The position numbers and the translations under genes were made by a program. 64,000 nt of DNA. Source: Planctomycetota bacterium. GTDB taxonomy: Bacteria; Planctomycetota; SZUA-567; H5-PLA8. Shown here in pieces: positions 12,097-64,000 of this stretch. The notes under the pieces are model-generated. The model did no database searches and had not been told where the DNA came from. It worked only from the letters and a program-made list of their open reading frames with translations. Position 1 is the stretch's first letter. Every line of letters begins with the position of its first letter. The stretch is from contig JACQFI010000115.1 of assembly GCA_016200135.1 (NCBI GenBank), positions 1-64,000 on the forward strand, in the 5' to 3' direction.

Positions 12097-12112
12097 TTCT
12101 GTGCTAGAAAAT
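12097..12112 (-). promoter_or_regulatory. Conserved upstream motif TTCTGTGCTAGAAAAT (extended: TCATTTTCTGTGCTAGAAAAT), copy 1, ~127 bp upstream of the 9094-11970 start codon
   Basis: The identical 16-mer recurs at 16905-16920 and 26044-26059, each ~126-129 bp upstream of a long-form propeller paralog. The outer arms TTTTCT/AGAAAA form an inverted repeat. Confidence 0.45.
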
Positions 12113-12179
12113 GCAGCGGACGGCACTGGGCGCCTGCGGGAGGCCGGAACGGCCCGCCATGGTCTTGGAAGCTACGCGA

Positions 12180-13955: not shown

Positions 13956-13971
13956 GTGCGTGCTTTTTCCA

Positions 13972-16779: not shown

Positions 16780-16904
16780 GACTTCAGTCCTTTGCATGAG
16801 CGTCAGAATCACATGTGCTTTAATCACCGCTTCGTCCATTGTCGTATACTCCGGCCAAGGTATGCACAGACCTCTAGAAAGAGAGCCGTGGGTCAATAAG
16901 TATA

Positions 16905-16920
16905 TTCTGTGCTAGAAAAT
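16905..16920 (-). promoter_or_regulatory. Conserved upstream motif TTCTGTGCTAGAAAAT, copy 2 (~126 bp upstream of the 16779 start)
   Basis: Exact 16-mer match to copies at 12097 and 26044. An additional half-site-like CTAGAAA lies at 16873-16879. Confidence 0.45.
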
Positions 16921-16976
16921 TACGGTACTGCCCTCTCGGTTCTCCAGACGGCGAAGCGAGGCGCCGGCGCTCCAAA

Positions 16977-19634: not shown

Positions 19635-19639
19635 GCACT

Positions 19640-21454: not shown

Positions 21455-21496
21455 TTTCTTCTCCTACTACCGCTGGTCCTGTTGCACCCTCCGCCA

Positions 21497-23275: not shown

Positions 23276-23350
23276 CGTGGGTTGTTCCTATCGGCGCTCC
23301 CGGCGCATGGACTGGCCAGGCGGCGATTGCGTGGTTTTTCTTTCGCGCGG

Positions 23351-25915
23351 CTATTTGGCCGGCGCCGCGGGGGGATCGATGAAGACGCCGCCCACCCAGA
23401 CGGCGTGGCCTTCATCCTGGATGGTGGTGATCACGCGCGCGATCACCTGGCCTTTGAGGTTCCAGACGAGGTACTGCTCCTTCTTGGCATCGGCGAGGGT
23501 CTGGGTGTCCAGGATCGCCTTCGTATCGGCGTCCTGCATCTCCACGGTGATGGCGCCGCCCGCGGGGAGGTAGAGCGCCACCTGATGCTCCTTGCCGTCG
23601 GTGAACTCGAGGTCGACGTCCATCTGTTCGCCGGCGCGCCACCACGTGATCGAACGGCCCGTGGCGTTGCCGGAGAGCTGCAGGTTGCGGGTGTTGGCCT
23701 GCGTGTTCGCCCACGGGACGCTGTCGACCTTGTTGTTCACCGTTACGTTCGCGCACTTGGGGACCGCGCCGGCCTTCTCGGCGCAGATCACGGCGCCTTC
23801 CGTGCCGTAAACGCCCTTCCAGTTTCCGGAAGTGGTCTCGTCGCCCTTCACAAACTTGGCAGCCGCGCGCTGAGGTTCGGCGACGGTGGCGGTCATCTTC
23901 TCGCGGCGGGGCTCGCCCTGGCTCACCGGGAAAGCGGCGTACATCAGCGTCACGGCGTCGCCGGTCTTCCAGGTCTTGTCCGTGATCAGGTTCACGCCCT
24001 TGCCTTCCGGATCGAGATCGACGCGCGTGACCTTCGCGCCGGCGAGTTCGAAGTTCTCGGGCTTGTTCCAGCGCCCGTCCTGCTGGAGCGGCAGGTCGCT
24101 CGTGAGCATGATCGTGTTCTCGAAACCTTTCCGGAATTTCAGCAAGCGCGCTTCGTTCCAGGCGAAGGCCGTCACAGGCTGGCCATTCTTGGCCGCCAGC
24201 GCGCCGCCGCCCGCGTACGAGAGGCTAAACGGGACCGCGGCATTCCGGATGTCGACGACGATCTCGTCGCCGTTGATCTGCGCCGCGGCCGGTCGCGTTC
24301 CGGCGGCGTCGGCGATCTGCAGGCCGTTGGACGGGTCCTTGACCGCCAGGCCGCCGCCGGTCTGCTTGAAGCGGAAAGTGAGCGCGTCCTTGGCGGCCGC
24401 CACGGCGTCGAGGTACGCGGCGTGTTCCTGGAGGTCGTAGCAGGCGATGCCGTCGAGCAGGCGCAGGTACAGCTTCCCGCCGGCGATGGCCGGCGAGGTC
24501 ATCATGCACATCTTCGGATTGAAGACGCCGAGTTCGACGTATTTCTCGGGCGTGGCTTTGATCATCGCGAGGGAGTAGGTGAGGTCGCCGAAGTTCTTGG
24601 TCAACTGGTGGCTCTCGCCCAGCGTCGTGAAGAGTTTCCCATCGGCAAGGACGGTCGCGGAGAACTCGCCGACGCCGCCCCGCATCGACTGCTTCCAGTT
24701 GAACTCCCCCGACTTCAGGTCCAGGCACTTGTAGGCGCCGCCGGGCACGTACAGGTGGTCCTGCCAGACGATGTCACCCAGGCCGTCGCTGAAGGGCTTC
24801 TTCCAGAGGACTTCCGCGCCCGCCGGCGTGATCCTGCACGCCTTGGCGCCGCTCCCGGCGTAACTGGTCGCGACCATCAGGAGGTCCCCGCACAAGGTCG
24901 GGATCGTGTTCATGTCGCCCTTCAGGGACCACTGGACCTTGCCGGTTTCCAGGTCGAGGCAGACGTACGCGGAGTTGTGATCGTCGGCGCAGTTGGAGGT
25001 GACGATGTAGTTCCGGCCGCCGGCGGCGAAGAGGAGCGGCGAACTGTAGCGCGCGTTCGTTTCGTAGCGCTTGTGCTTGGCGTCCCAGAGTGAATTTTTC
25101 CAGAGGACGGCGCCGGACTCGGCGTTATACGCAACGCCCGCGTGGTACACGATGCCGTTGGCGACCAGCGGCGAACAGTGCTCGGGGTCCGCCTTCGCCT
25201 GCCACAGCAGTGCGCCGTCCTTGGCCGAGAGGCAGTACAGCCCCATGGCTCCGGCGGCGTAGCACTTGCCGCTCCAGACCGCCGGCGTGGCGCTGACGAA
25301 ACCGTCTTCAAAGGTCCACCACTGCACCCCGCCCAGCTTTTTCAGTAGGGCGGTATCGACGGGAAAATCCTTCCGCCACAGGGTCTTGCCCGAGGCGGCA
25401 TCCAGGCAGACAACCGTATCGTTCAAGATTGTGGCGTGCCTCCACGCGTAGTATTGAGGATAGCTGGCGAAGGCGCCCAGTTTCACATCCTTGATCTTCC
25501 CCAGCGCTTTTTCCCATTCGCGTTTGCTGGCGATGCCCACATCTTTCAGACTTTCCAGCTTCACCGCGACGTCTGCGGTAATGATGTTGTCCTTGATCGC
25601 GGCGTTGAGGATCTCCGTCGTGACCAGCTTGTACGTCTGCCCGCCGCCCACGGGCAGTTTCGCGTTGGCGTAGACGAACACCTTTCCATCCGCCACGACA
25701 GGACTGGCGACGCCGCCCTCTTCACAGGCGGGGATCCATTCGCTCTTCCAGAGCTGCTGCGGCCCTTCTTTGGGCCAGGCGTCGAGGAGTTTGGGGCTGT
25801 TGAGCGCGATGCCGTCGCGGTTGGGGCCGCGCCACTGGGGCCAGTCGCTGTCCGCGGCGGTGGCGCATGACGCGAAGACCGCCATGCAGAACACTGCTTG
25901 AATGCGCGTGTGCAT
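23351..25915 (-). CDS. Secreted PQQ-like beta-propeller repeat protein, long form (first gene of the array in the direction of transcription)
   Basis: The start is refined to MHTRIQAVFCMAVFASCATAADSDWPQWRGPNRDG (the ORF extends to 25987). Contains FVKGDETTSGNWKGVYGTEGAVICAE. Confidence 0.75.
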   Translation of the reverse strand: MHTRIQAVFCMAVFASCATAADSDWPQWRGPNRDGIALNSPKLLDAWPKEGPQQLWKSEWIPACEEGGVASPVVADGKVFVYANAKLPVGGGQTYKLVTTEILNAAIKDNIITADVAVKLESLKDVGIASKREWEKALGKIKDVKLGAFASYPQYYAWRHATILNDTVVCLDAASGKTLWRKDFPVDTALLKKLGGVQWWTFEDGFVSATPAVWSGKCYAAGAMGLYCLSAKDGALLWQAKADPEHCSPLVANGIVYHAGVAYNAESGAVLWKNSLWDAKHKRYETNARYSSPLLFAAGGRNYIVTSNCADDHNSAYVCLDLETGKVQWSLKGDMNTIPTLCGDLLMVATSYAGSGAKACRITPAGAEVLWKKPFSDGLGDIVWQDHLYVPGGAYKCLDLKSGEFNWKQSMRGGVGEFSATVLADGKLFTTLGESHQLTKNFGDLTYSLAMIKATPEKYVELGVFNPKMCMMTSPAIAGGKLYLRLLDGIACYDLQEHAAYLDAVAAAKDALTFRFKQTGGGLAVKDPSNGLQIADAAGTRPAAAQINGDEIVVDIRNAAVPFSLSYAGGGALAAKNGQPVTAFAWNEARLLKFRKGFENTIMLTSDLPLQQDGRWNKPENFELAGAKVTRVDLDPEGKGVNLITDKTWKTGDAVTLMYAAFPVSQGEPRREKMTATVAEPQRAAAKFVKGDETTSGNWKGVYGTEGAVICAEKAGAVPKCANVTVNNKVDSVPWANTQANTRNLQLSGNATGRSITWWRAGEQMDVDLEFTDGKEHQVALYLPAGGAITVEMQDADTKAILDTQTLADAKKEQYLVWNLKGQVIARVITTIQDEGHAVWVGGVFIDPPAAPAK

Positions 25916-26043
25916 GATGGGTTTTCCTCGTCCGCGTTCATGGTTAGGTGGAAAGAGTTTGCCAAGCCCCTGCATCGTCTTCGACATACGCCACTGTTGG
26001 ACGCCCTGCGGCGAATTCTTGTTGCCTGCTTCTTAAAGTCATT

Positions 26044-52444: not shown

Positions 52445-52846
52445 ATGAGCAATGCAGGCAGGAAGCGCAAAGCGGTCAAGATCGTGCACGACGACGTCAT
52501 ACATGCCTTTGCGACCCGCTTGAAAGAACTTCGCAGCGGGGCGGGCCTGTCCCAGCGGGAGCTGGCGGTGCGGGCGGGCGTGCATCTGACTTATATCAGC
52601 CGCCTCGAACGCGCGGAGGCCGCGCCGGGGCTGGACCTCATGCAGAAGCTATCCAAGGCCCTGGAGGCGCCCTTGTCCGATCTGCTTCCGGCCGAGGCCG
52701 GAAGTTCCTTGTCCATAAAGCAGGCACAGGCACGGCGGCGGCTGGAATCGATCCTGCGCAGGGCGGATGCCGCTACGCTTGGGACGTTGAATGCGCTGCT
52801 GCTCCTGATCGATCAGGAAGTGAGCCGGCACAAGCGCCGTACGTAA
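52445..52846 (+). CDS. XRE-family helix-turn-helix transcriptional regulator
   Basis: LRSGAGLSQRELAVRAGVHLTYISRLERAEAAPGLDLMQKLSKALEAPLSDLL is a canonical Cro/C1-type HTH. Confidence 0.75.
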   Translation: MSNAGRKRKAVKIVHDDVIHAFATRLKELRSGAGLSQRELAVRAGVHLTYISRLERAEAAPGLDLMQKLSKALEAPLSDLLPAEAGSSLSIKQAQARRRLESILRRADAATLGTLNALLLLIDQEVSRHKRRT

Positions 52847-53119: not shown

Positions 53120-53359
53120 CTATAGGCAGGACTCGATCCAGGCGGCTTCGGCGGCGAGGGCTTGCTCGCGGTACTCGTAGGGGCCGAGGACGGCGCCTCC
53201 CAGCGGCGCGAGGTCCACGATCCAGCGGGCATCCGCGGTGGGTTCGACGTGCGAGGCGCGTGAGATCACCGGTGCGCCATGCTCAAGCAACGAGCGCAAG
53301 GCATCGGCGTAAATAAACTGCAGGGATCCGTCCGCACGAAGGAAGATCAGATGTTCCAT
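53120..53359 (-). CDS. Small hypothetical protein (79 aa), last gene of the AAA-DUF1257-DUF2997 unit
   Basis: Good Shine-Dalgarno (AGAGGGAG) 7 nt before the ATG. Starts 14 nt after the DUF2997 stop. Confidence 0.45.
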   Translation of the reverse strand: MEHLIFLRADGSLQFIYADALRSLLEHGAPVISRASHVEPTADARWIVDLAPLGGAVLGPYEYREQALAAEAAWIESCL

Positions 53360-53372
53360 GGCCGCTCCCTCT

Positions 53373-53591
53373 TTAGGGGCCGGCCTGGAGTCGGCGATCC
53401 CGTTCTTCGGTCTGGGTGAACTCGGCGGTCGTGCGGTCCTTCATGGTCTGGCCCAGCGAAGTCTCCAGCCGGCGCGTCAGGTCCCGGCAACCGGGACCCG
53501 CATATCCCTTGACCTGAACCTCAACCGCGCCATCGGCCGAGATCGTGACCTGTATCTGGCATTGCATACGCTTCCTCTCAGCGAAATTCAT
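53373..53591 (-). CDS. DUF2997-family small protein
   Basis: MQCQIQVTISADGAVEVQVKGYAGPGCRDLTRRLETSLG matches the DUF2997 pattern (I-x-V-x-dG-x-v-x-v-x-G-f-x-G-x-x-C). Assigned from memory of the family. Confidence 0.55.
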   Translation of the reverse strand: MNFAERKRMQCQIQVTISADGAVEVQVKGYAGPGCRDLTRRLETSLGQTMKDRTTAEFTQTEERDRRLQAGP

Positions 53592-53599
53592 CGCGCTCT

Positions 53600-53959
53600 C
53601 TAGGCCAGAAGGCGCAGGACGACCGAGCCGTCCTCGCGTTCTTCGCGCCGCACGGCCATGCCCATGCGCTGGGCCTGCCGGACGGCGACGCGCTCGGAAT
53701 AGGTCCTCAAGACCCGGTCCAGCGCTGCTCTCGTGCCCCAGGCGCCGTTGAAGTTGTCGAACTGGACCGTGCCGTCGGCCAGCACGGCCACGGGGTAGCG
53801 CCAGTCCTTGAGCTGAAAAGAGGCCGCGGCCTGGACGCGGCCGGAATAAAGCTTTACTTCCCGGGCGCCGAGGTCGCAGGGCACGCCCAGGTGCCCACAG
53901 ACCTCGGCCAGTATCGGCAGGTCTCTCAGTCGGACCTGCACGGTGGCGATATGACTCAT
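53600..53959 (-). CDS. DUF1257 (Ycf35-like) family protein
   Basis: MSHIATVQVRLRDLPILAEVCGHLG ... FDNFNGAWG resembles cyanobacterial Ycf35/DUF1257. Assigned from memory. Confidence 0.55.
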   Translation of the reverse strand: MSHIATVQVRLRDLPILAEVCGHLGVPCDLGAREVKLYSGRVQAAASFQLKDWRYPVAVLADGTVQFDNFNGAWGTRAALDRVLRTYSERVAVRQAQRMGMAVRREEREDGSVVLRLLA

Positions 53960-53987
53960 GCGGTACGCTCCTTTATGTAGGGACCGT

Positions 53988-55547
53988 TCAAACCTCCACG
54001 GCGACGGGTTGCCGGGACCGGTCGGACTCGAGGCTCAGGCCCGCGGCCACGGCCCGGCCGCTGCGGCACCAGTCGCGCAAGGCCTCGATCTTCTCGGGCA
54101 TCGTCTTGGAGAGCGGCACGGTCTCCCGGAGGGCCTTCAGGACGTCCTGAAGGTCGAGCTTGCGCATCCGGTCGTGGAAGGCCTCGACGAGCGCGTTCTG
54201 GACGGCGGCCTCCAGTTCCGCGCCGGTGAATCCCGCGCAGGCGTGGGCCAGATCGAGCAGGTTGGCCGGCTCGAAGCGCTGCCCGGCGCGTTCCAGGTGA
54301 ATGCGCAGGATCTCCGCGCGGGCCTCGGTTCCCGGGAGGTCCACGGCGAAGATCTCGTCGAATCGGCCTTTGCGCAAGAGTTCCGGCGGCAGCGCGCCGA
54401 TCTCGTTGGCCGTCGCCACGACGAAACACTCGGCCTTCTTGTCGGAGAGCCAGGTCAGCAGGGCCCCGAAGACGCGCTGCGCCGTGCCGCCGTCGTGGCC
54501 GCCGCCGGGACCGAAGGCCTTCTCGACCTCGTCCACGAGGACCACGCAGGGCGCGATCGCCTCGGCGGTCCGAATGGCCTGCCTTAAATTCGACTCGGAC
54601 TCGCCCACCAGGCTCCCGAAGAGCCGCCCGGCGTCGAGCCGGACCAAGGGCAGCCGCCACGCGGCGGCGACGGCCCGCGCTGCGAGGGTCTTGCCCGTCC
54701 CCGGAACGCCGACCAGAAGCACGCCTTTGGGCGGCAGGATGCCGGCGGCCCGCGCCGCGTCGCCGAAGAGACTCGTGCGCTTGGCGATCCAACTTTTAAG
54801 GTTCTCCAGGCCGCCGATATCCGCCATGCCGTGCTCGGGCTCCTCGTATTCGAGCACGCCGGTGCGGCGGACGATCTGGCGCTTCTCGCGGATCGCGAGG
54901 CGGATCGCGTCCGGGCCCAACGCGCGATGATTGACCAGTGAGAGCGCGACGAGGTTGCGCGTCTCGTCCAGGGTGAGCCCCTGGCAGGCGCGCGCGAGAG
55001 CGGGCAGCGTGGCCTCATCGACGGTGACTTTTCCGGCGAGTTGCTCCCGGTAGAGCACGGCGAGGGACTGCACGTACTCGCAGAGTTCGCCTCGGGTCGG
55101 AAGCGGCAGATCGGCGATGAAGAGATCCGACTGCAGCTCCGCGGGAATCCGCCAGTCGCGGCCGACCAGGACCAGGGCCTTGCCCGAGCCGCGGGCATGC
55201 GCGAGAGCTTCCCGAAGCGCGCGCACGAAGATCGGGTTGCTAAGCTCGGCCCAGGGATCGAGCAGGGCCAGGACGACATTCTCCTGGGTCTTCCGAAAGG
55301 CATTCAGCGCCTCGTCCAACCCACACGGATCCTGGAGCGGACGCTCGGGTTCTTCGTCGTCCAGGGACAGGCGCTGCAATCCCGAGGCCGAGGACCAACG
55401 CCACAGTACGCGCGGAACCAGCTGGCCTGACAAGGCCTGGACGGCTTGGCGCAGGGCCACGATGGCCCGGGCCTCTTCGAGGGTGCGCAGATGAACTCCG
55501 GGGAGCCTCGCTTTCAAGGCCGCCAGGAGCGCATGGATCGCTTGCAT
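53988..55547 (-). CDS. Classical AAA+ ATPase (CDC48/FtsH-clade AAA domain; Ycf46-like) with ~250-aa N-terminal domain
   Basis: Walker A GVPGTGKT, Walker B VVLVDEVEK, and the second region of homology. The start was chosen at MQAIHALL (the ORF opens at 55652). A competing Arg-rich frame was rejected. Confidence 0.8.
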   Translation of the reverse strand: MQAIHALLAALKARLPGVHLRTLEEARAIVALRQAVQALSGQLVPRVLWRWSSASGLQRLSLDDEEPERPLQDPCGLDEALNAFRKTQENVVLALLDPWAELSNPIFVRALREALAHARGSGKALVLVGRDWRIPAELQSDLFIADLPLPTRGELCEYVQSLAVLYREQLAGKVTVDEATLPALARACQGLTLDETRNLVALSLVNHRALGPDAIRLAIREKRQIVRRTGVLEYEEPEHGMADIGGLENLKSWIAKRTSLFGDAARAAGILPPKGVLLVGVPGTGKTLAARAVAAAWRLPLVRLDAGRLFGSLVGESESNLRQAIRTAEAIAPCVVLVDEVEKAFGPGGGHDGGTAQRVFGALLTWLSDKKAECFVVATANEIGALPPELLRKGRFDEIFAVDLPGTEARAEILRIHLERAGQRFEPANLLDLAHACAGFTGAELEAAVQNALVEAFHDRMRKLDLQDVLKALRETVPLSKTMPEKIEALRDWCRSGRAVAAGLSLESDRSRQPVAVEV

Positions 55548-55684
55548 ATAAAGGATCTCCTGAGGTTCTGACGTGGGTTGATGGAGGTGCGACGACCGAA
55601 TGGCGATCCGGTTCCTGCGTGGCTTGCCAACACGCGCGGCTTCAGTATTCATTGCCGCATTCCAACCATAAAGGAGGGGGAAAC

Positions 55685-55843
55685 ATGGCGGCCAGACGGG
55701 GCTCTAAGAACGCGGGCAAGAGGCCGTCCAGCGTAAAGCGCGGCCGGAAGGCGATCTTCACGCCGGCACAGAAGAACGTTCTGGAGCGGATGATCCGGTC
55801 CTCGCTTAAGGGGGAACTGAAGACGCTGGTGAAGTCGCTGTAG
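55685..55843 (+). CDS. Small basic protein (52 aa) on the opposite strand, wedged between two minus-strand genes
   Basis: Strong SD AAGGAGGGGG 6 nt upstream of the ATG at 55685. Sequence MAARRGSKNAGKRPSSVKRGRKAIFTPAQKNVLERMIRSSLKGELKTLVKSL. Confidence 0.45.
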   Translation: MAARRGSKNAGKRPSSVKRGRKAIFTPAQKNVLERMIRSSLKGELKTLVKSL

Positions 55844-55897
55844 TCCATTTCTTCGCATGCCTCTCTTCCGAGACCAGCCCGGGCGGCCTTTCACGGC

Positions 55898-56944
55898 CTA
55901 AGCGCTCTTCTGCGTTACCGCCTGCACGTTTTCCTCTACGATGGGGGTCGGCACCGCCTGCGATGTCACCAGCGCCGGAAGCTCGACCAGAGCCTGGTCT
56001 AGAGCCGGCAGGACGGCCTGGACCCTCGGCGAAGAGACGGCCAGCAGGTCGCCGTCAAAAGCCGTGCGCACGATCTGTCCCAAGGCTCCGCCAAGCCTGC
56101 CGGCATGCGCCAGTGTGGCCATCACGTCCAGGTCCGCCTTGGCCACCAGGGCCAGATCAAGCTCCGAGGTGCGGACCTTCGCAAGCAGACCGGCGGCGTC
56201 GGCGGAGAGGCTGCGCGCGAAGACTTTGACCCGATCGAGGTGCTCCGTGAGCGCCTTCCAGCGGTGGCGCGCCTGGCGCTTGGTGAGCCCGTCTTCGGCG
56301 CGTGCTTTTTGCATCTCCTCGAAAAGCCGGACGAGGTCCTCGCGCACGGACTGCACCAGCACCTCCAAGGCCTTCTCGCGGACCAGCTCGTTCTCCAGGC
56401 CCACGGGAACGATTAAGCACTCGCCGCCCAGTTCGCTCACGAACCGGGCCACGCGCTGGAGCAGCCCGCGGTTCTCCCGCGGCACGAAATAGACCGCGCC
56501 GGCATGGCGGAGACTCAACAGGCCTTTCTGGCGTTCGAAGATGCGCCGGACGACCTTCGAGACGTCGCTGGGCAGATAGAGCGCGCCGTAGCGGGCAAAG
56601 AGCGCCTGGACCTTTCCGAACAGCGCCGCGTTGTCGCCGCCCACCGTCTGGGTCTGCTTGTCGAACCAGAACGCGGCCTCGAACTCGTAGCCCAGCCGCT
56701 CCTGCTCGCGGTAGCGGCGCGAGAGCTGCCAGGTCCAGCGCGCCTCGGTCTCCTCGACCTCGTCGATCAGGCCGTCGGCGCGCATGCGGTTTTTGGCCCG
56801 GACGAAGCAGAAACGCTTGGCGAGATCGCGGGCGAACTGCGCGTCCAGGCCGGTGCACTCCAGGGCGCTGCGCACGCGTTCGACGGTCACGGTGGGCAGC
56901 CGGTCCAGGAAGAATATAGAACCCATCGATGGCGAGATTTCCAT
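55898..56944 (-). CDS. Hypothetical protein (~349 aa) in the Ubl-cassette island
   Basis: Balanced composition. Start chosen at MEISPSMGSIFFL. No recognised motif. The alternative frames 56157-56858 and 56302-56919 are Arg/Pro-rich and were rejected. Confidence 0.5.
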   Translation of the reverse strand: MEISPSMGSIFFLDRLPTVTVERVRSALECTGLDAQFARDLAKRFCFVRAKNRMRADGLIDEVEETEARWTWQLSRRYREQERLGYEFEAAFWFDKQTQTVGGDNAALFGKVQALFARYGALYLPSDVSKVVRRIFERQKGLLSLRHAGAVYFVPRENRGLLQRVARFVSELGGECLIVPVGLENELVREKALEVLVQSVREDLVRLFEEMQKARAEDGLTKRQARHRWKALTEHLDRVKVFARSLSADAAGLLAKVRTSELDLALVAKADLDVMATLAHAGRLGGALGQIVRTAFDGDLLAVSSPRVQAVLPALDQALVELPALVTSQAVPTPIVEENVQAVTQKSA

Positions 56945-57058
56945 CTGTTGCACCTCCTTGAGAGACAATCGGGCCGCGTCCATGCCGCCGGATACGGAAG
57001 GACCGAAGAAATGGAATCGTGAGGTGCCGCCAGGGCTTAACGAAGTGACCCCTTGCGA

Positions 57059-57355
57059 CTATTTTGGACTAGATTCTTTTGAAATGTGCTTCCAGACGGC
57101 GTGCTTGACGGATAAACGCCTTTTCAAGATCCCCCATAAGGCAGGCGCCCTCGAACGGTTCTCCACGGTCCAATCCACGCGGCCTCTTCCCGACGGCTCC
57201 AGGATGGCGCCCAGCAGATAGGCCAGGTCCACGCCGATCTCGTCTTCGGCAAAAGACGCGGTCTCAGCGAAGGCAAGTTCGAAGATCTCGCGGGCCAGCC
57301 GTGCCCGTCGAAGAGCACGTACCCTCGAGGCACGTAGGCCATGTGCTGAATTCAT
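57059..57355 (-). CDS. Small hypothetical protein (98 aa)
   Basis: SD AAGGAGAG 9 nt upstream of the ATG at 57355. Confidence 0.4.
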   Translation of the reverse strand: MNSAHGLRASRVRALRRARLAREIFELAFAETASFAEDEIGVDLAYLLGAILEPSGRGRVDWTVENRSRAPALWGILKRRLSVKHAVWKHISKESSPK

Positions 57356-57419
57356 GCGCGAAAGCTCTCCTTCGTTCCTATGATCCCTTGCTACGGAGGC
57401 AGGCGGACGAATGTCCCGT

Positions 57420-58169
57420 TCAGGAACCGCGCCGCGCCAACTCGACGATCAGCGGCGGGAAGTCGCGTTCGCCTTTCTCTTCCAGAAACGCTTCCCACAT
57501 GCGCTCGAGCATGTCCGTGTCCACGGTGACCTCTGCGCGGAAACGCTCGCTTACATAGTCGAGGAAGCCGTCACAGTCCGAGCCGCAGATCCATTCCCGA
57601 TCCACCACCTCGGACTCCGCGTCGTCCCGAGCCTCCTGCCGGCGGTGGCGTTCGGCCTGGCGTGCGGCGTTGCGCCGCTCGCGAGCCTGGCGCACCCGCT
57701 TCGAGAGGCCCGGTGCGTTCGCGTCCTCGTCCGGTTCGACGTCTTCCGCGAGAGGACCGTCGTACGTGCCGTAGGTCTCCTCGTACGCGTCCTCGCATTC
57801 CTCGCAATAGGACCGGCAGTCGTCCCTCACGTAGTCGTAGTCGGGAAGGTCCACGCCGTCGTCCTTCCAGTCGGGATAGACTTGGTTCGTGAACTCGATC
57901 AGAAGCGCGCGGACGTGGGGACTCGGGATCTCGTCGAAGAGGTCGGCATCGAGATGGTAGTCGTCGGAGAACGCGAAGGTCGGCAGCCCGCAGCGCTTGC
58001 GGACGATTCCTTCCATAAATAGGACATACTCGCCGATCCAGGTCCCGTCGGCCTCCTCCGAGCCGTGGTCGTCGCGGGAGTCCACTACCTCCAACTTGGG
58101 GACGTCGACGTGCGGCAAGCCCAGTCGCTGCTTCTTCAGAGCCAGGGCGCTGAGCACGAAACAGGCCAT
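57420..58169 (-). CDS. Highly acidic hypothetical protein (249 aa, Asp/Glu-rich with a Cys-containing segment) immediately downstream of E1-like gene
   Basis: SD AAGGAGG 5 nt upstream of the ATG. DYDYVRDDCRSYCEECEDAYEETYGTYDG; the C-terminal half is basic/acidic mixed. Confidence 0.5.
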   Translation of the reverse strand: MACFVLSALALKKQRLGLPHVDVPKLEVVDSRDDHGSEEADGTWIGEYVLFMEGIVRKRCGLPTFAFSDDYHLDADLFDEIPSPHVRALLIEFTNQVYPDWKDDGVDLPDYDYVRDDCRSYCEECEDAYEETYGTYDGPLAEDVEPDEDANAPGLSKRVRQARERRNAARQAERHRRQEARDDAESEVVDREWICGSDCDGFLDYVSERFRAEVTVDTDMLERMWEAFLEEKGERDFPPLIVELARRGS

Positions 58170-58181
58170 GCGTCCTCCTTG

Positions 58182-58901
58182 TCACGCGTTGACCGGAACG
58201 AGCGCCATCGCGCAGTTCCCGGCGTCGAAATAGACTTCCTGCGGCACTACGGTGTTCTTGCGGCGCCCATGGCGCGCGCCATGGGTCCAGAGCGCGTGAA
58301 AGGCCGCCAGAAGACTGGCCGCGGCCAGAAAATTCGTGACGAGCAACTGCGTCTCGCCTTGTGCGACCCGCTCTTCGCAGCCAGCCTCCGCGCGGTCGCC
58401 TTTCAGGCTGTGGGCGACCTCGGGGTGGCGGGCGAGCAGGGGCACCGTCAGGTCCTTCGCTCCGCGGCGCAACGTGACGTGGACGTTCCCGTCCAGGGTC
58501 TCGTTGCCGGACGACAGGACATAGACCTCGCGCAACTCCGCCGCGCGCCGGGCGATCAGCGCCCGCGCCGGATGATTGTCGACGGCCACCAAGATCAGGG
58601 CACGTTCACACACGGCCGCGTGGACGTTTCCAGATGTGACGTACTCGGCATGAACGCGCAGCCGCAGGGCCGGATAGCGGCCCGTGAAAATCCCCGCCTG
58701 CCCCAGCGCCTTGTTGGCGCCGAGGTGTTCGAAATCAAACTCCTGGCGCGCGGCGTTGCCCGCGCTGTAGCGGTCGCCGTCCCAGAGGTGGATCGCGCCC
58801 TGAAAACGCTCCGCATTCAAGAAGCGCAGCAACGGTCCAAGTAGCCACGACCCGATCCCGCCGCAGCCGATCAGGGCCATACACTCAACGTTTCGAACCA
58901 T
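58182..58901 (-). CDS. ThiF/MoeB-family E1-like adenylyltransferase (minimal ubiquitin-activating-enzyme-like)
   Basis: The start is refined to MVRNVECMALIGCGGIGSWLLGPL (Rossmann GxGxxG), then DGDRYSAGNAARQ (nucleotide-binding Asp/Arg). SD GGGAGGGA precedes the ATG. Overlaps the JAB gene by 17 nt. The long N-terminal ORF extension (to 59381) was rejected as Arg/Ser-rich. Confidence 0.75.
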   Translation of the reverse strand: MVRNVECMALIGCGGIGSWLLGPLLRFLNAERFQGAIHLWDGDRYSAGNAARQEFDFEHLGANKALGQAGIFTGRYPALRLRVHAEYVTSGNVHAAVCERALILVAVDNHPARALIARRAAELREVYVLSSGNETLDGNVHVTLRRGAKDLTVPLLARHPEVAHSLKGDRAEAGCEERVAQGETQLLVTNFLAAASLLAAFHALWTHGARHGRRKNTVVPQEVYFDAGNCAMALVPVNA

Positions 58902-59724
58902 GGGTCCCTCCCTCGAGTTCCAGGTGCTCGGCCGCCCAGAGCCGCTCTTCGATCTCCTCCCGCATCTGCTCCAGGTGTTCGAGGTACTCCTCGCGGCTCG
59001 CGAAGGGTTCTCCGAGCAAATCGCACCAGCGTTCGTCCGTCTCCGTGCCCAAAGGCACGGGGGTGAATAACTCCCGTTCCAGCACAGGGGCGGGGCTGAC
59101 CTGTGCGAGCCACGCCGGGTCAGGCGCCGGCAGGTCTTCCGCTTCCAGGACCTCGGCCAGGTCCGTCTTGAACGCGCGCCCGGCCAACATCCAGCGGCAG
59201 GCATACGAGCGGATGGGCTTGTCCAGATTCCCGACCGTGATGTGCAAACCATCGAAACCGCTCTCGTCGGCATCGTCCGTGCCGGAGTGAAAGGCCTGGA
59301 TGTCCGCGTGCGAATGGATGGAGCCGAAGAGCTGGAATCCGGCCGGTGCGTTGGGCCGCGCGTGCAGGTCGTACTCCACACGCAGTCCGCGCACCTGTTG
59401 CGGCGGAACGATCACGCGCCACGCTTTCACGTTCGGGTTGCAATAGAGCAGGACGACCGCCTCGCTCTGATAACGCCGATAGACCTCGCCAAAAAAGCCC
59501 TCCACCGCGCGAAAGAGCTTTAACGGCAGCAGCGGCACATGCAGCTCCGCTTCTTCCTTGAGATCGGCCAGCGACGGGATGCCGTCGAGCTTCACGCAGG
59601 CGGTATAGAATTCGTTGCGCACGAGCTTGAAGAGGCCGTTCGCGCCGGAAGCGAAACAGACGGGCGCGTCGGGCAACGCGACTTCAGCTCCCGGCAGCGG
59701 CTTGGGTACCGGATATATCTGCAT
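58885..59724 (-). CDS. JAB/MPN (JAMM) metallopeptidase, deubiquitinase-like
   Basis: Intact JAMM motif HSHADIQAFHSGTD (H-x-H-x7-S-x2-D), with upstream acidic residues. Start refined to MQIYPVP. Confidence 0.8.
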   Translation of the reverse strand: MQIYPVPKPLPGAEVALPDAPVCFASGANGLFKLVRNEFYTACVKLDGIPSLADLKEEAELHVPLLPLKLFRAVEGFFGEVYRRYQSEAVVLLYCNPNVKAWRVIVPPQQVRGLRVEYDLHARPNAPAGFQLFGSIHSHADIQAFHSGTDDADESGFDGLHITVGNLDKPIRSYACRWMLAGRAFKTDLAEVLEAEDLPAPDPAWLAQVSPAPVLERELFTPVPLGTETDERWCDLLGEPFASREEYLEHLEQMREEIEERLWAAEHLELEGGTHGSKR

Positions 59725-60025
59725 GGCTGCCCGCCTTTCTCTTTTTTGAGGGCTTTGTTTCGTTCGGGAGGCGCTGCAAAGCATCCTCCAATGCCTGGAA
59801 CCGTTTGCCCTTCCGGCGCACGGACTCCCGCAAGGTCACCGCGCCGCGCGCGTAGTAGGTGAACTGAGCGCAGAGAACTTGCCCAGGCGAGCCGGGAAGT
59901 TGCGCGAGGGTTTCCAGGTCCGCGTCGAGCAGATGGTTCAAAAATTCTTCCAAGGACCTCGTCCCGGCAGCTGGACAACGGCACAGGATGGCGTTCAGGT
60001 CAGGGCTCTTGGCCACGGGATCCAC
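59684..60025 (-). CDS. Candidate small ORF (GTG start, ~113 aa) between the E2-like and JAB genes; unknown, possibly a second small partner protein
   Basis: Open frame with an SD-like GGAAAGGAGG just upstream. It overlaps the JAB start by 40 nt. No recognisable motif. Confidence 0.25.
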   Translation of the reverse strand: MDPVAKSPDLNAILCRCPAAGTRSLEEFLNHLLDADLETLAQLPGSPGQVLCAQFTYYARGAVTLRESVRRKGKRFQALEDALQRLPNETKPSKKRKAGSHADISGTQAAAGS

Positions 60026-60035
60026 CCTCCTTTCC

Positions 60036-60761
60036 TTATCCAGGGTGTTCGGCCAGGAATTTCAGCATCTCGCCCACGTGGGCGCGCAGATGCTGCTTGA
60101 GTTCAAGCTGCGCGTGGAACTCGGGATCTTTTCCAGAGGCCAGCGCCCAGTCTTCCAGGCTCTTGATCGCCAGGCCCTCGAAGGAAGGCAGGAGGTCGCC
60201 GTTCCAGGCCGATTCGAGCACCTGGCGGATCAGGGCCGTGACGCGCACGCCGGCCGGCGCCTTGGTCTCTTCCAGGCTCAGGTTGCCCATGCAGAGGGCG
60301 CCGTTGCCCTCCTCGTAGATATTGGGCATGGGGAGGCGGAAGAGAGGCGTGTCGTGACCGGTTTCGAGAACGGGCGTGCGCGTCGCCGTCAGCCACAAAT
60401 CCTGGATCGCGGCGCACTCCGCACTCGGCGCCTGACTGGTCCGGCAGAACCAGAGCGTGCGCGGCCAGGAGAGCGTGAGTTCGTTGGCCTCGTGGCCGCC
60501 GCGCACCGCGTTGTACTGGACCACCTGAAGGCCCGGCGGGCGTTCGATCAGATAGATCGTGCGCGTGCGTTTATTCTCGTCGCAGGCCCGCGAGAACAGC
60601 ACGCAGCCCTCGGGCAGGAACCCCGAGTCCACGGGCTGCGTGCGCGCGAGTTCGGCCAAGAAGTCCGTCGTCGTGGCTTCCCGTTCCACGACCGTCCGTT
60701 CCAGGCGCACCAAGTCGCCCTCGATCAGGATGCGCTTTCCTTCCGATGTGACCGCGGCCAT
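60036..60761 (-). CDS. UBC-fold E2-like ubiquitin-conjugating-enzyme homolog
   Basis: PMPNIYEEGNGALCMGNL closely mirrors the eukaryotic E2 active-site signature HPN-I-x3-4-G-x-IC-L (catalytic Cys after the HPN-like turn). SD AGGAGG precedes the ATG. Confidence 0.65.
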   Translation of the reverse strand: MAAVTSEGKRILIEGDLVRLERTVVEREATTTDFLAELARTQPVDSGFLPEGCVLFSRACDENKRTRTIYLIERPPGLQVVQYNAVRGGHEANELTLSWPRTLWFCRTSQAPSAECAAIQDLWLTATRTPVLETGHDTPLFRLPMPNIYEEGNGALCMGNLSLEETKAPAGVRVTALIRQVLESAWNGDLLPSFEGLAIKSLEDWALASGKDPEFHAQLELKQHLRAHVGEMLKFLAEHPG

Positions 60762-60847
60762 CCCATTCCTCCTTTGGAAAAAAGGCGCGCCCCGTCTGGC
60801 GGACAGCCGGGGCGCGCCGAGGCTTGCCTTAGGAATGCCGGCGGCGC

Positions 60848-61066
60848 TTACGCGGCGCCTTTCTCGCCGGCCACTTTGACGAACTCGACGCTCGCGCCTT
60901 CGGGCACGCGCGCGTCCTCCGAGACGGGCGCGCCGTTGATGCGCGGTTGCGCGTTGGCCGCTACGCCGAGCAGGTCGCCGACCTCGTCGCGGACCTCACG
61001 AATCGTCTTCCCTGCCAAGCTGTCCAAATTGGTGCTGTTAACGCCACAACGAACGCAGATGCTCAT
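60848..61066 (-). CDS. ThiS/MoaD-like beta-grasp ubiquitin-like protein (72 aa)
   Basis: MSICVRCGVNSTNLDSLAGKTIREVRDEVGDLLGVAANAQPRINGAPVSEDARVPEGASVEFVKVAGEKGAA has the ThiS/MoaD pattern (M-I-V-x-x-G ... TV-x-L-x-x-LG ... V-x-NG-x-V ... L-x-eGD-Ve-f). SD GGAGGG lies 8 nt upstream of the ATG at 61066. The C-terminus is not Gly-Gly and may be processed by the JAB peptidase. Confidence 0.55.
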   Translation of the reverse strand: MSICVRCGVNSTNLDSLAGKTIREVRDEVGDLLGVAANAQPRINGAPVSEDARVPEGASVEFVKVAGEKGAA

Positions 61067-61158
61067 GAGAAATACCCTCCAACACGATGAGAAGAAATAA
61101 TGCGGCCTCCGGCGCCCGTTGCGCCGGCAGGTTAGGAGTCGAAGAACGCGGAAAGCGC

Positions 61159-61443
61159 TCAGCGGGACGAAACGGCCTTCCGCTTGGGACGACGAATAAG
61201 GCGACGCAGCCATTCTCCCGGCGGCAGGCTGAGCGGCTGCGTGCACCCGTCGCAGAGCAGGAGGATCGGCGCCACCGGCTCGAACGCCTTCGGCATCGGT
61301 CGGAAGGCCTTCCAACGCTTCGGGGAGAGCTGCTGCACCGGATGAACGCGTAGCGTGGCGACCAACACCACGAAGCCCGTGCGATTCCCGCATACCGGGC
61401 ACCGGACCGGACCTCGGGCCCTGGGAGCGAACGAATTTTTCAT
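61159..61443 (-). CDS. Small zinc-ribbon protein (94 aa)
   Basis: C-P-V-C ... C-D-G-C gives four Cys in ribbon spacing. SD GGAGAT 7 nt upstream. Confidence 0.4.
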   Translation of the reverse strand: MKNSFAPRARGPVRCPVCGNRTGFVVLVATLRVHPVQQLSPKRWKAFRPMPKAFEPVAPILLLCDGCTQPLSLPPGEWLRRLIRRPKRKAVSSR

Positions 61444-61486
61444 GGTTAGGATCTCCGTGCGAGCGCGCCCAGAAAGCGAACGCGTA

Positions 61487-61705
61487 TCAGGTGGGGACCG
61501 CCAGGCGTCGGCGCGTCCGGGGGCGGGCGAGTTCCTCCGCGAGCAGTTCGACGATCTCTTCCAGGGCCTCGTCCACGGCCAGGCCCTCCCCCACCCCTTC
61601 GAGGGCCCGGTCCACGGCGGCGACCTCGGTGACGATCTGCCGGATCCGGCCGAAGGCCTCGTCGCGGCGGCGGGGTGGCATCTGGAGTACGTTGAGCGTG
61701 CGCAT
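61487..61705 (-). CDS. Small acidic helical hypothetical protein (72 aa)
   Basis: SD AAAGGAG 9 nt upstream of the ATG at 61705. Confidence 0.35.
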   Translation of the reverse strand: MRTLNVLQMPPRRRDEAFGRIRQIVTEVAAVDRALEGVGEGLAVDEALEEIVELLAEELARPRTRRRLAVPT

Positions 61706-61810
61706 GGTTCGAGACTCCTTTCAAGAAAGTTGCCTTGGAAAAACCGGACCGGACACCCGGCCCGGGTACAAAAGAATGACGTCAGCGGATTAGTGTCGGA
61801 TTCCGTGCGA

Positions 61811-62629
61811 TTAGCGGCCCAGACACCGGACCCGGAACGGACAGCTCGTGCAGGGCCAGCCCTCGCGCCTGGGGAAGGCGCGTGCCCGGATCGCCGTCCA
61901 GGTGGCCTGGACCTGTTCCTTCAGGCGCGCGGTCTCCGGCGCGCCGACCGGCGTCTCCAGCACCTGCACCCTGGGCTGGCGGGCCTTGGTGAGCACGACG
62001 AAGCGGGCCCGGACCTCCCGCACGCCCAGCGTCCGCGCCCAGGGCGCGAGACCTTCCACGTAGATCACCAACTGCGAGACCTGCTCGCGCAGCTTGCTCT
62101 CGTTCCAGGCCGCACGGGCGGTCTTCAGATCGGTCAGGAGCAACGTGTCGCCCTCGCGTTCGATCAGGTCCAGCCGCGCGTGGATCGGCGGGGCGTCCGG
62201 CAGGAGCCGGAAGCGTGCCTCCTCCTCTATCCCTAAGACCTCCCGGGCGCAGCATTCGGGCCGTTCCAGATGCTGGCGATAGGCAGCAAGCATCCGGCGG
62301 GCCTGGTCGCTCAGGGACAGCGGGCCTTCGCTCGGCCCGTAGACGATCTGCGGGCGCGCGCGCGCCTGCTCTCCCCAGGCGCCCTCGTAGATCGCGGTCA
62401 GGGCCTCGGCGCTCGGAAGCCCGCGGCCGAGCAGCCGTGCCTCGTGCAGGCGTTCCGTGGCCGTATGGAACGCCGTGCCGAAGAGTAGCGCCGCAGGCGC
62501 GCGTTCCTCCGGTGCGCGTTCGAGATAACGGTAGAAATATTTTTGTGGACACTGCGCGTAGGTTTGCAACGCGGACCACGAAGTATGGTCGACGTCGGCG
62601 GGGGCGTCTCTTGTTTTCGCATTCGACAT
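61811..62629 (-). CDS. PD-(D/E)xK nuclease, Cas4/AddB-like with Fe-S cysteine cluster
   Basis: One N-terminal Cys (YAQCPQKYF) plus a C-terminal CTSCPFRVRC, which is the Cas4/DUF83 4-Cys arrangement. Central acidic/Lys residues (DLIE, DLK) are consistent with a PD-(D/E)xK core. Start refined to MSNAKTRD with SD GGAGAG. Confidence 0.6.
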   Translation of the reverse strand: MSNAKTRDAPADVDHTSWSALQTYAQCPQKYFYRYLERAPEERAPAALLFGTAFHTATERLHEARLLGRGLPSAEALTAIYEGAWGEQARARPQIVYGPSEGPLSLSDQARRMLAAYRQHLERPECCAREVLGIEEEARFRLLPDAPPIHARLDLIEREGDTLLLTDLKTARAAWNESKLREQVSQLVIYVEGLAPWARTLGVREVRARFVVLTKARQPRVQVLETPVGAPETARLKEQVQATWTAIRARAFPRREGWPCTSCPFRVRCLGR

Positions 62630-62684
62630 GCGTGGCTCTCCTTTTTCAGTCGGGTAGGAAAAGACGGCAGGCTTCGGGAAGACT

Positions 62685-63116
62685 TCAGGGGTGGGTGCCG
62701 CAGGCGGCCAGGCGTGACTTGAGATCGTCGATCGCCTTAGAGGCACCGACGATGCTGAGCGGGGCGGCCTCGGTCACGCCCTGCTCGGCCAGGAACGGCT
62801 CGGGCTCAAGCCCCAGGTCCTTGCAGAGGGCCCGGATCGCCCGCAACTGCGCATTGGTCGCCGGCGCGATGCGCCGTGTCCCATGCCCATTGCCGTTGCC
62901 GTTTCGAACGGCGGTGACCGGTGGAGAGCTGTTCTCTGGCAGCGAATGGGCCGCACCCTCGGACGAGATCGTCTCTTGGCGATCGTGATCATGTGCCGGT
63001 TGTTTCGCGAGGACGCTCAATTGCTCTTGGATACATCCGTCCAGGAGCGTGTAGAGTTTGCGCAGCTTCCGTTGTATGGCCGCGGGCTTCGCGGTCCCTG
63101 CGAGTTCCAGTTCCAT
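62685..63116 (-). CDS. Hypothetical protein
   Basis: Open frame. Start chosen at MELELAGTAKPA (the ORF extends to 63197). An AT-rich putative promoter patch lies upstream at 63281-63330. Confidence 0.35.
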   Translation of the reverse strand: MELELAGTAKPAAIQRKLRKLYTLLDGCIQEQLSVLAKQPAHDHDRQETISSEGAAHSLPENSSPPVTAVRNGNGNGHGTRRIAPATNAQLRAIRALCKDLGLEPEPFLAEQGVTEAAPLSIVGASKAIDDLKSRLAACGTHP

Positions 63117-63372
63117 CGTGGCCCCGACCTGCAGGCTGGAATAAGGCACGCCGGGCAGCGGCGTCTTGCGCGAGAGGTTTCCAGAAATGCGAACCATGAG
63201 AGGCTCCTTATTTTTGGGTGAAGGGGGTAGCGGGGCAACGGGCGCCGACAGGCTGGGCCGGCCATTAGGTCATAGGCGACGTCCAATACATACTATAATA
63301 ACACATAAATACATATATTTTAGGAGGCGGGCACAAAGCCGGCCGTTGGCGTGCCTCGGGCCGCCCGAGATC

Positions 63373-64000
63373 TCAGGCGGCGGCCCAGGAAGCGCCCCAG
63401 GCGTGGGAGCTGAGCCGTAATGCGTACGTCAAGGCATGCAGCACGTCGTCCTGGCCGCCACTGGGACAGACGAAGCGATGGCGCCGGGCGGCGTTGTCAT
63501 AAAGCGCGGTCTCGTGCCAGAGCTCTTCGAGGCATTTCCCGCAGTCCGTGAGCCTGGGGAAGCGGATTTTCTTTTTCTTGATCCGCGTAAACACTTCGCC
63601 GATCCATGCAGTGCGATCGACGGTCCAGCGGTACATGCTCCGAGAAAATTGGGGACTCGACTCCGTATCCGCATACATCAGGCCGTAAAGCCCTAGGCTG
63701 CGGTGGGCCTCCTGGCAGTTCATGAGCAGCAGGCGGTTCAGAACGGAGCCGTTGCCGTTCGCGTCGGCGGCCACCAGATCGATCCCGAGTGCGATTATCA
63801 AGTCCTTGGCCCGCGCCAGAGCGTCATCGAAACCGTCGGCGATCGGCATCGACTCCAGATGGAGGACCTGAAAGATCCCCTGGGCGTCGTGGGCGCCCAC
63901 CACGAACGCCGTACGCGAGTTCACGCCGCCGGACCAGTCGATGCCCAGCACCAGGGACTGCAGCATCAGGTTCACACCGCTCAACTTCTGCCGCTCCCGT
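63373..64000 (-). CDS. Partial CDS (3' part; continues beyond window) with RNase-H-like nuclease domain resembling phage terminase large-subunit C-terminal / RuvC-like resolvase
   Basis: LVLGIDWSGGVNSRTAFVVGAHD resembles the first strand and acidic residue of terminase/RuvC nucleases. The frame is still open at the window edge (no stop upstream of 63984). Confidence 0.35.
   Translation of the reverse strand, partial: RERQKLSGVNLMLQSLVLGIDWSGGVNSRTAFVVGAHDAQGIFQVLHLESMPIADGFDDALARAKDLIIALGIDLVAADANGNGSVLNRLLLMNCQEAHRSLGLYGLMYADTESSPQFSRSMYRWTVDRTAWIGEVFTRIKKKKIRFPRLTDCGKCLEELWHETALYDNAARRHRFVCPSGGQDDVLHALTYALRLSSHAWGASWAAA

Follow-up and report, generated by a model that had tools for sequence, protein, structure and literature searches.

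We analysed a stretch of 64,000 nucleotides (nt), hereafter the window, from contig JACQFI010000115.1, a metagenome-assembled genome (MAG) contig of Planctomycetes. Near its end, on the minus strand, it carries genes for a ubiquitin-like protein (Ubl), an E2-like protein, a small open reading frame (ORF) termed ORF X, a JAB/JAMM peptidase and an E1. Judging from their sequences and models, we propose, with a probability of about 0.6, that these genes form the core of a functional, highly divergent Ubl-conjugation module of the 6d/PRTRC type, one that resides in the backbone of an integrative element of Planctomycetota. We take 6d, the operon class of Genome Biol 7:R60, to be the same as the 'PRTRC' cassette of TIGRFAM/NCBIfam (ParB-related, ThiF-related cassette), and its E2-like protein to be that of the Pfam family Prok-E2_D. 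The computation revealed a beta-grasp Ubl precursor (pro-Ubl) with Gly70, intact JAMM and E1 sites, the Asn and Cys of prokaryotic E2 family D, and strict co-conservation of the genes.

Layout and conservation of the cassette genes

The cassette reads, in the direction of transcription on the minus strand, Ubl (60848-61066; 72 amino acids (aa), ATG start), E2-like protein (60036-60761; 241 aa), ORF X (59684-60025; 113 aa, GTG start), JAB/JAMM peptidase (58885-59724; 279 aa) and ThiF/MoeB-type E1 (58182-58901; 239 aa). The original prediction, made from the sequence alone, had described tightly packed, co-directional genes with a 17-nt overlap of E1 and JAB and a 10-nt gap between E2 and the small ORF. 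All of this was found, together with a 41-nt overlap of ORF X and JAB and a 12-nt gap from E1 to the next gene. A GGAGG-type ribosome-binding site precedes every cassette start. When genes were called independently on identical Logan contigs, the same ones were returned, with ORF X given as 110 aa.

The source contig has a GC content of 62-69%. The GC content at third codon positions (GC3) of the cassette genes is 0.77-0.85, in sequence of 65% GC. Every cassette gene is kept at 39-71% protein identity, and in the same order, on at least 15 independent contigs, so the homologous neighbourhood looked for in other genomes does exist. Because of this conservation of order and the GC3 values, the cassette ORFs are real genes and not a chance product of high GC. 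The motifs that had been quoted from the translations are also present, namely PMPNIYEEGNGALCMGN at residues 144-160 of the E2-like protein, HSHADIQAFHSGTD at residues 137-150 of JAB, GCGGIG at residues 12-17 of E1, and FVKVAGEKGAA at the end of the Ubl. The JAMM and adenylation motifs proved intact, their residues being invariant among orthologues. These results support the claim that the genes make up a Ubl/E2-like/JAB/ThiF-E1 cassette such as Iyer, Burroughs and Aravind predicted.

The Ubl is a likely precursor

The structure of the 72-aa Ubl was predicted with confidence as a beta-grasp, with MoaD as the best structural matches, in agreement with the fold first proposed for it. A Ubl profile searched against PDB sequences gave SAMP2 as the top match, at a weak E=0.075, and some Ubl homologues carry the Joint Genome Institute (JGI) label 'molybdopterin converting factor small subunit'. 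The most prominent feature is at the C-terminus, where 89 of 89 full-length homologues have AGEKG followed by a variable tail of 1-14 aa. In the window the tail that follows Gly70 (codon 60857-60859) is 2 aa long (AA), and the protein ends in KG plus this tail, not in Gly-Gly. Since AGEKG is invariant and the tail variable in all 89 homologues, the sequences strongly imply a pro-Ubl that is trimmed after Gly70. For a Ubl without a Gly-Gly end, the original prediction had offered either JAB-dependent maturation or a non-canonical chemistry, and it is the former that this pattern strongly favours. In Type II BilA, the pattern of a Gly plus a tail was shown experimentally to require pre-processing by the deubiquitinase (DUB) (PMC10557695).

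A sulfur-carrier pathway of the ThiS/ThiF or MoaD/MoeB kind was considered and rejected. The Ubl is tailed and has KG rather than GG, and partner genes are missing, with no thiamine, molybdenum cofactor, rhodanese or other sulfur-transfer genes in the conserved module.

JAB and E1 retain their catalytic residues

JAB matches Pfam Prok-JAB at 9.9e-6, its 25.9 bits passing the cut-off of 25. The best NCBIfam match is PRTRC_A (1.2e-7), over residues 48-206 of a 299-aa ORF, which correspond to about 28-186 in the 279-aa numbering. This match takes in the region N-terminal of the JAMM core, and JAB is extended by about 80 aa at its N-terminus. Glu88, His137-x-His139, Ser147 and Asp150 are invariant, and hold even against a remote homologue from a Butyrivibrio plasmid. 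We predict that JAB acts both in processing the Ubl and in deconjugating it.

E1 has one adenylation domain (Pfam ThiF, 3.8e-14), and its best NCBIfam match is PRTRC_ThiF (3.3e-13). Single-sequence searches of the PDB with E1 and with JAB gave no matches. Only a profile of E1, built from nine orthologues, succeeded; it matched 55 PDB sequences of the E1 superfamily, with TcdA best at 2.4e-11, and these include ThiF, UBA5, MoeB, SAE2, Uba4, Uba1, Cap2 and MccB. The invariant motifs of E1 are GxGGxG (residues 12-17), DGD (41-43), N49..R52-Q53, K64 and D108-N109..R113. Its sole invariant Cys is Cys175 (58377-58379), within GDRAxxGC.

PADLOC gave weak matches of the Rossmann part of E1 to the Cap2 / E1-E2 models of the cyclic-oligonucleotide-based antiphage signalling system (CBASS), the best at 5.2e-9 over residues 7-67. 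A CBASS Cap2/Cap3 system was rejected, as neither a CD-NTase nor an E1-E2 fusion is present.

The E2-like protein has an invariant Asn-Cys loop

The E2-like protein shares 100% identity with NCBI HY291_21910 and belongs to a small close family, with 17 clusters in 5.8 billion proteins. Over its Cys loop, the window protein gives two local, sub-threshold matches, to Pfam Prok-E2_D (E=0.015) and to NCBIfam PRTRC_B (E=0.083). With the family profile, 453 representatives were found at E<=1e-3, and for 154 of these the E-value was 1e-10 or lower. Among 63 diverse full-length relatives, 34 match Prok-E2_D (best 2.5e-10) and 19 match PRTRC_B (best 8.5e-8), and no other family was matched by any of the 63. 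Because the relatives match these two families and nothing else, we assign the protein, by sequence and at the superfamily level, to the predicted 'prokaryotic E2 family D' lineage. No match was obtained by tblastn with the E2-like protein in phage and plasmid collections, nor with the distant relative P0122 in the plasmid collection.

The sole positions invariant among the 63 relatives are P50, N147, C157 and G159. The putative catalytic Cys157 (60291-60293) stands 10 residues past Asn147 (60321-60323) in MPNIYEEGNGALCMGNL, a loop similar to HPNINSNGSICLDIL of UbcH5. When the family was aligned by hhalign with three canonical E2s, whose sequences were entered by hand, the catalytic loop alone was aligned, at 8.8% probability; in that alignment N147 pairs with the Asn of HPN, and C157 with the catalytic Cys. 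An AlphaFold2 model built from 17 sequences, with a predicted local distance difference test score of 70, consists of a helix, a six-stranded meander, the Cys loop and further helices. Foldseek with this model listed UbcH5c at rank 28 (E=0.53), and the family profile found no E2 among PDB sequences. Thus the HPN-like turn attributed to the E2 holds in the form of the invariant Asn147/Cys157 loop, but the ubiquitin-conjugating (UBC) fold was not recovered by Foldseek or by the PDB profile.

This lack of a recovered UBC fold would suit a reading in which the 241-aa protein is no E2 and no conjugation occurs, with Ubl, E1 and JAB serving adenylation, sulfur carriage or Ubl processing, or making up a PRTRC-like maintenance cassette of some other chemistry. 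It would also suit the ThiF/MoeB size of E1, the rank of TcdA, ThiF and MoeB as its top solved relatives, and the resemblance of the Ubl to MoaD in structure and in database labels. We hold it to be quite unlikely. The module contains no sulfur-transfer partners, the Ubl has a cleavable tail and a KG end, the JAMM peptidase and the protein with the invariant Asn-x9-Cys are strictly co-conserved with the Ubl, and the whole module lies within a mobile element.

A larger conserved module surrounds the cassette

The cassette forms the core of a conserved module of 11-14 genes, occupying about 8.6 kb in the window. At other loci, numbered here with the prefix L, the common order is a 72-aa protein, Ubl, E2, ORF X, JAB, E1, a 249-aa acidic protein, (DUF2997-like, DUF1257-like), DUF6744 and AAA+. 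The window and L024 depart from this order, with the DUF1257-like, DUF2997 and 79-88-aa genes placed after the AAA gene. Complete copies are found in the window, L001, L007, L019, L020 and L024, and copies running to the contig end in L002, L013, L018 and L023. All-against-all clustering demonstrated that the block from the 72-aa gene to AAA is conserved, whereas the flanks are unrelated between loci. The neighbours of the cassette, at first described as uncharacterised acidic and small proteins, are instead conserved parts of a module with a Cdc48-like AAA+ ATPase.

An ORF X orthologue is located between E2 and JAB at every locus, with the core LxxFLxxLLDxDLxxLAxLPGxPGxVLxAQF. No match to ORF X was found in Pfam, NCBIfam, PADLOC or PHROGs. 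In many other loci ORF X is 213 aa long and has an additional N-terminal half; the short form is also present in L006, L015 and L024. By tblastn, a 98-aa protein encoded downstream of the 249-aa gene (57059..57355, minus) corresponds to the N-terminal half of the 213-aa X, its gene matching the 5' half of X in L001, L002, L007, L010, L012-L014 and L017-L023. This has the appearance of gene fission and relocation, the N-terminal half standing separately at 57059-57355 in the window and being joined in L001:10714-11355.

The gene immediately 3' of E1 (57420..58169, minus) encodes the 249-aa protein, which is acidic (61 D+E against 31 K+R) and Cys-rich. It has five invariant Cys, in the pattern C118-x3-C122-x2-C125 ... 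C195-x3-C199, and it always occupies this position where it was seen (L001, L002, L007, L013, L015, L018-L020, L023 and L024). Library scans, PADLOC included, gave no family match. We regard it as a candidate metal-binding adaptor, E3-like factor or substrate. The CxxxCxxC arrangement was also considered as that of a radical-SAM enzyme, and this was rejected for want of any radical-SAM family match; so acidic a protein is an unlikely radical-SAM enzyme.

Further downstream lies a DUF6744-family protein of 348-361 aa (55898..56983, minus; Pfam DUF6744 6.6e-6). Orthologues 52-67% identical occupy the same position, and PF20529 is precomputed on 14 of 20 homologues. A tblastn search with this protein against phages gave no match. 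It is followed by the AAA+ ATPase (53988..55652, minus), which matches Pfam AAA at 1.1e-31, AAA_lid_3 at 6.3e-8 and phrog_8638 at 1.2e-133. The ATPase belongs to the classical clade and has a single AAA domain behind a family-specific N-terminal domain of about 270 aa; its true start is likely Met36 (55547). The nearest solved relatives are Cdc48/p97/VAT, at about 1e-64, and orthologues 65-76% identical close the module in L001, L007, L019, L020 and L024. Between the DUF6744 gene and Met36 there is a gap of about 350 nt (55548-55897), in which a 68-aa ORF on the minus strand and a 74-aa ORF on the plus strand overlap, with GC3 of about 0.77.

Three small genes on the minus strand end the block in the window. 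The first encodes a DUF1257-like protein of 119 aa (53600..53959), whose match to Pfam DUF1257 is weak (E=0.037) and whose orthologues occur in L001, L007, L013, L019, L020 and L024. The second encodes a DUF2997-like protein of 72 aa (53373..53591), 51% identical to an L024 gene with PF11211 DUF2997 and 30% identical to a 70-aa protein of L001. The last (53120..53359) encodes a 79-aa protein with the motif RASHVEP and an L024 orthologue of 51% identity.

At the other end, the module begins with a gene for a conserved 72-aa protein (61487..61705, minus), distinct from the Ubl, which has orthologues 48-57% identical at the same position in L001, L002, L011, L016-L020 and L024 and no family match in library scans. 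Between this gene and the Ubl lies a gene for a 94-aa protein with two CxxC pairs (61159..61443, minus), which is zinc-ribbon-like, with weak zinc-ribbon matches, and was found in the window and L024 only (40% identity). A strong terminator-like hairpin (61744..61765, minus), with a 9-bp stem of 8 G-C pairs followed by TTTTT, separates the first module gene from an upstream PD-(D/E)XK gene. It coincides with the start of synteny, and is the probable upstream boundary of the module transcription unit.

The module lies in an integrative element

The first 51.4 kb of the window are ordinary chromosome, with GntR-type regulators, pyruvate-kinase-like and Band 7 proteins, carbohydrate-active enzymes, nitrilase and HpaB. 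This host part includes, on the minus strand at 6220-25987, five tandem paralogues of 591-958 aa, each with a PQQ_2/BamB-like beta-propeller. An XRE-family regulator (HTH_3, 1.1e-13) is encoded on the plus strand at 52445-52846, convergent with the module end, and marks the probable junction of island and chromosome.

The module is situated in an island at the contig end, adjoining three genes on the minus strand. These encode a PD-(D/E)XK nuclease of the Cas4/RecB-like kind (61811-62746; PDDEXK_1 6e-32), a 170-aa protein (62685-63197) and a 203-aa ORF corresponding to the C-terminal nuclease half of a terminase large subunit (63373-63984; phrog_675 8.8e-9). The nuclease and the 170-aa protein are both kept in L024, and may be a recombination pair of the element. 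The terminase-like ORF may be a truncated gene or a remnant, and hints at a prophage-like element. No cassette relative was found among IMG/VR viral contigs, and there is therefore no sign of a phage-borne cassette, the terminase-like fragment notwithstanding.

The nature of the island was apparent from L024, a 582-kb contig of another Planctomycete that is syntenic with window positions 53120-63197. There (14922-16178 and flanks), a tyrosine integrase follows the orthologue of the 79-aa protein and ends the element, directly beside the host nuo (NADH dehydrogenase) operon. L024 also carries a DNA ligase and an NYN gene, both absent from the window copy. Because this synteny ends in an integrase next to host nuo genes, we conclude from the sequence comparison that the module is part of an integrative element.

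The hosts of the other copies are Planctomycetota and one Nitrospira MAG, and several MAGs have 2-3 diverged copies. The neighbours in L001 are a serine recombinase, a RuvB/MoxR-like AAA, DUF2201 and, upstream, a weak ParB_N-like gene met at this locus alone, and those in L006 and L015 are a DNA ligase, a clamp-like 250-aa protein and DUF2958. A remote set of E2-like, JAB-containing (558 aa) and ThiF genes was found at 67.3-72.3 kb of Butyrivibrio hungatei plasmid pNP144 (L009; NZ_CP017832.1). These three genes are annotated as hypothetical and interleaved with Rad52, with helicase, Pol III delta and SSB genes after them, and they are a Firmicute plasmid version of the same cassette superfamily.

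Degenerate copies were seen in the MAG loci L014, L021 and L022. They consist of a 5'-truncated E2, ORF X and JAB, lack the Ubl, the E1 and the genes downstream, and are followed by unrelated host transporters. Such copies raise the question of whether the window copy, too, is a decaying, non-functional remnant of an element. The split of ORF X (59684-60025 and 57059-57355), which is a single 213-aa protein elsewhere, would agree with decay, as would the finding that the interval from the module end (53120) to the host genes contains no integrase; neither an integrase nor a tRNA was found in the window. We consider decay very improbable, since the catalytic residues and the module ORFs are all intact, with ribosome-binding sites, the short form of X recurs in L006, L015 and L024, and the window stops at 64000, before the other element end.

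Proposed mechanism and role

We propose the following scheme for the module. JAB/JAMM would remove the variable tail (AA) from the 72-aa precursor and expose Gly70, as suggested by the sequence pattern and by analogy with BilC and BilA. The single-domain E1, presumably as a homodimer, would then adenylate Gly70 and probably load the Ubl on Cys175, and the E2-like protein would take over the Ubl on Cys157, which lies in its HPN-like loop MPN..C; these two steps follow the analogy with Bil. The E2 would attach the Ubl to target lysines, perhaps, and speculatively, with the aid of ORF X and/or the 249-aa protein, and JAB would reverse the attachment. More speculatively still, the Cdc48-like AAA+ ATPase, together with DUF6744, DUF1257-like and DUF2997 proteins, might unfold or extract the same targets or conjugates.

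As to what the module is for, we lean towards a role in serving the element itself, be it in establishment, in maintenance or in competition with other elements or phages; a stand-alone host defence island is less likely. This role is favoured because the cassette resides in the element backbone. A more specific version, in which the minimal E1-E2-JAB set tags proteins of the host or of rival elements and the AAA+ ATPase, with its DUF partners and the Cys-rich adaptor, unfolds or extracts them, is tentative and, in our estimate, rather unlikely.

Several observations weigh against a conjugation module of the 6d/PRTRC type that serves its element. The curated matches score far below their cut-offs, with bits against cut-off of 49.5/144.75 for PRTRC_ThiF, 31.5/101.8 for PRTRC_A, 12.2/131.45 for PRTRC_B and 15.5/25 for Prok-E2_D. 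No homologue of PRTRC C, D, E, F or ParB was found in the window, which ends at 64000 (NCBIfam at E<=1; Ubl, ORF X and ten neighbours). For these two reasons the module is best described, on sequence grounds, as a divergent relative of 6d/PRTRC, the closest known kind, and not as a strict PRTRC member. In addition, the 249-aa protein, DUF6744, the Cdc48-like AAA+ ATPase and DUF1257-like/DUF2997 are partners that are not known to belong to PRTRC. The searchable literature yielded no experimental or functional study of 6d/PRTRC, its mentions being of a mobile-element cassette of unknown function. The ATPase is also met without the cassette. Full-length relatives, 33% identical, occur in phages (mycobacteriophages of the Catdawg type) as the AAA alone, and at L026 (10001-13174) a DUF6744-AAA+ pair is found in an element rich in small ORFs, with integrase, DnaJ and HSP70 and without Ubl, E2, JAB or E1. 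The pair thus forms a sub-module that can be separated from the Ubl genes, and functional coupling between the two rests on conserved adjacency. Moreover, some neighbours are of defence type, namely MADS/NERD genes in L002 and a reverse transcriptase and Imm33 in L007. In L015 (7508-11230) a 1240-aa SNF2-type helicase is encoded right downstream of the cassette, with an RNKWAH motif in its N-terminal region, which may be a Swt1-like HEPN domain.

Such defence-like genes in the variable flanks of a self-contained block are among the features that would be expected if the cassette were the defence cargo of the element, for example for superinfection exclusion, and acted by Bil/Bub-type conjugation of the Ubl onto phage structural proteins. 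The BilABCD gene order, the Gly-plus-tail Ubl accompanied by a JAB enzyme, and the patchy, multi-copy distribution point in the same direction. Of the five E1/E2/JAB operon classes predicted in 2006, three, namely 6a, 6b (Type II CBASS) and 6c (Type II Bil), now count as anti-phage systems, and 6e (Bub) performs protein conjugation. Nevertheless, E1 lacks Prok-E2_C/IAD, E2 is related to Prok-E2_D only, DUF6527 is missing, and the invariant residues are Cys and not Ser/Tyr. Both the window cassette and that of L024 are co-directional among backbone genes (nuclease, ligase, integrase), with no recognisable defence island, and the literature search found no experimental evidence of defence by 6d/PRTRC. 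The anti-phage role put forward by the original prediction is an extrapolation, since PADLOC assigns no system, giving weak E1/Cap2 matches, and the cassette is in the backbone of an integrative element. We judge anti-phage defence to be doubtful, though deserving of real weight, and prefer a module that serves the element.

The module offers clean features for experiment, in the AGEKG pro-Ubl, the single invariant Cys of a minimal E1, the invariant Cys of the E2-like protein and the constant Cdc48-like partner, whose steady association with the cassette hints at a tag-and-unfold pathway. If conjugation is true, a ThiF-sized E1 can drive E2-dependent protein tagging, a first handle is gained on the use of PRTRC-type cassettes to mobile elements, and Ubl tagging might prove to be linked with AAA+ unfolding in bacteria. 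If tagging is indeed followed by unfolding or extraction, the module would represent a prokaryotic counterpart to the ubiquitin-Cdc48 axis, and 6d/PRTRC would gain its first assigned function. If defence is true, it would add another ubiquitin-like immune family.

Comparison with known systems

Like the eukaryotic and archaeal ubiquitin/SAMP systems with Cdc48/p97/VAT, the module encodes a Ubl set together with a classical-clade AAA+ ATPase whose nearest solved relatives are Cdc48/p97/VAT. It differs in that the ATPase has a single AAA domain and an unrelated N-terminal domain, that neither a proteasome nor a Ubl-binding adaptor is evident, and that the coupling is inferred from adjacency only.

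Bub systems use Tyr/Ser oxyester intermediates and a DUF6527 serine protease, and have fused Ubl-E2, JAB-E1 or E2-E1 proteins (PMC11601596). Here, in contrast, none of the proteins is fused, E1 and E2 each have an invariant Cys (C175 and C157, respectively), and no DUF6527 (BubE) was found among the Pfam matches of the module or flanking genes.

The likeness to the Type I/II BilABCD (bacterial ISG15-like) anti-phage systems is closer in layout. The original prediction held that the gene order differs from that of BilABCD, but the described order is Ubl-E2-DUB-E1 (PMC10557695) and is the same here; what does differ, as was also claimed, is the small ORF X inserted between E2 and JAB. No curated or PADLOC match to Bil was obtained. 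Both systems have a Cys-based E1 and E2, and in both a conserved Gly of the Ubl precedes a non-conserved tail, which in Bil is removed by the JAB DUB (PMC10557695). On the other hand, BilD is a multidomain protein, with IAD, AAD and a CYS domain and an N-terminal Prok-E2_C, whereas the 239-aa E1 of the module is a single domain. The E2 is not of the BilB/CEHH type and resembles another Pfam family, its similarity being to Prok-E2_D / PRTRC_B only. The label Bil/Bub-like therefore fails at the family level, where the curated matches are PRTRC_A, PRTRC_B, PRTRC_ThiF and Prok-E2_D, the E1 has a single domain and DUF6527 is missing.

According to its published description, class 6d resides in mobile elements and combines a small Ubl that has a Gly at its C-terminus with an E2-like protein that keeps a Cys but not the HPN His, a JAB that carries a JAB-N domain, an E1, an additional alpha-helical protein and further genes (PMC1779556). 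Like 6d/PRTRC, the planctomycete module has a small beta-grasp Ubl that stands alone and conserves a C-terminal Gly, an E2-like protein in which a Cys is conserved and the HPN position has no His, a JAB with an N-terminal extension and intact JAMM, a single-domain ThiF-like E1, further small proteins, and a mobile-element location. The top curated matches of E1, JAB and E2 are PRTRC_ThiF, PRTRC_A and PRTRC_B, respectively. We conclude that the module is a divergent variant of an already predicted operon class, and that its analogy with Bil and Bub is one of superfamily level.

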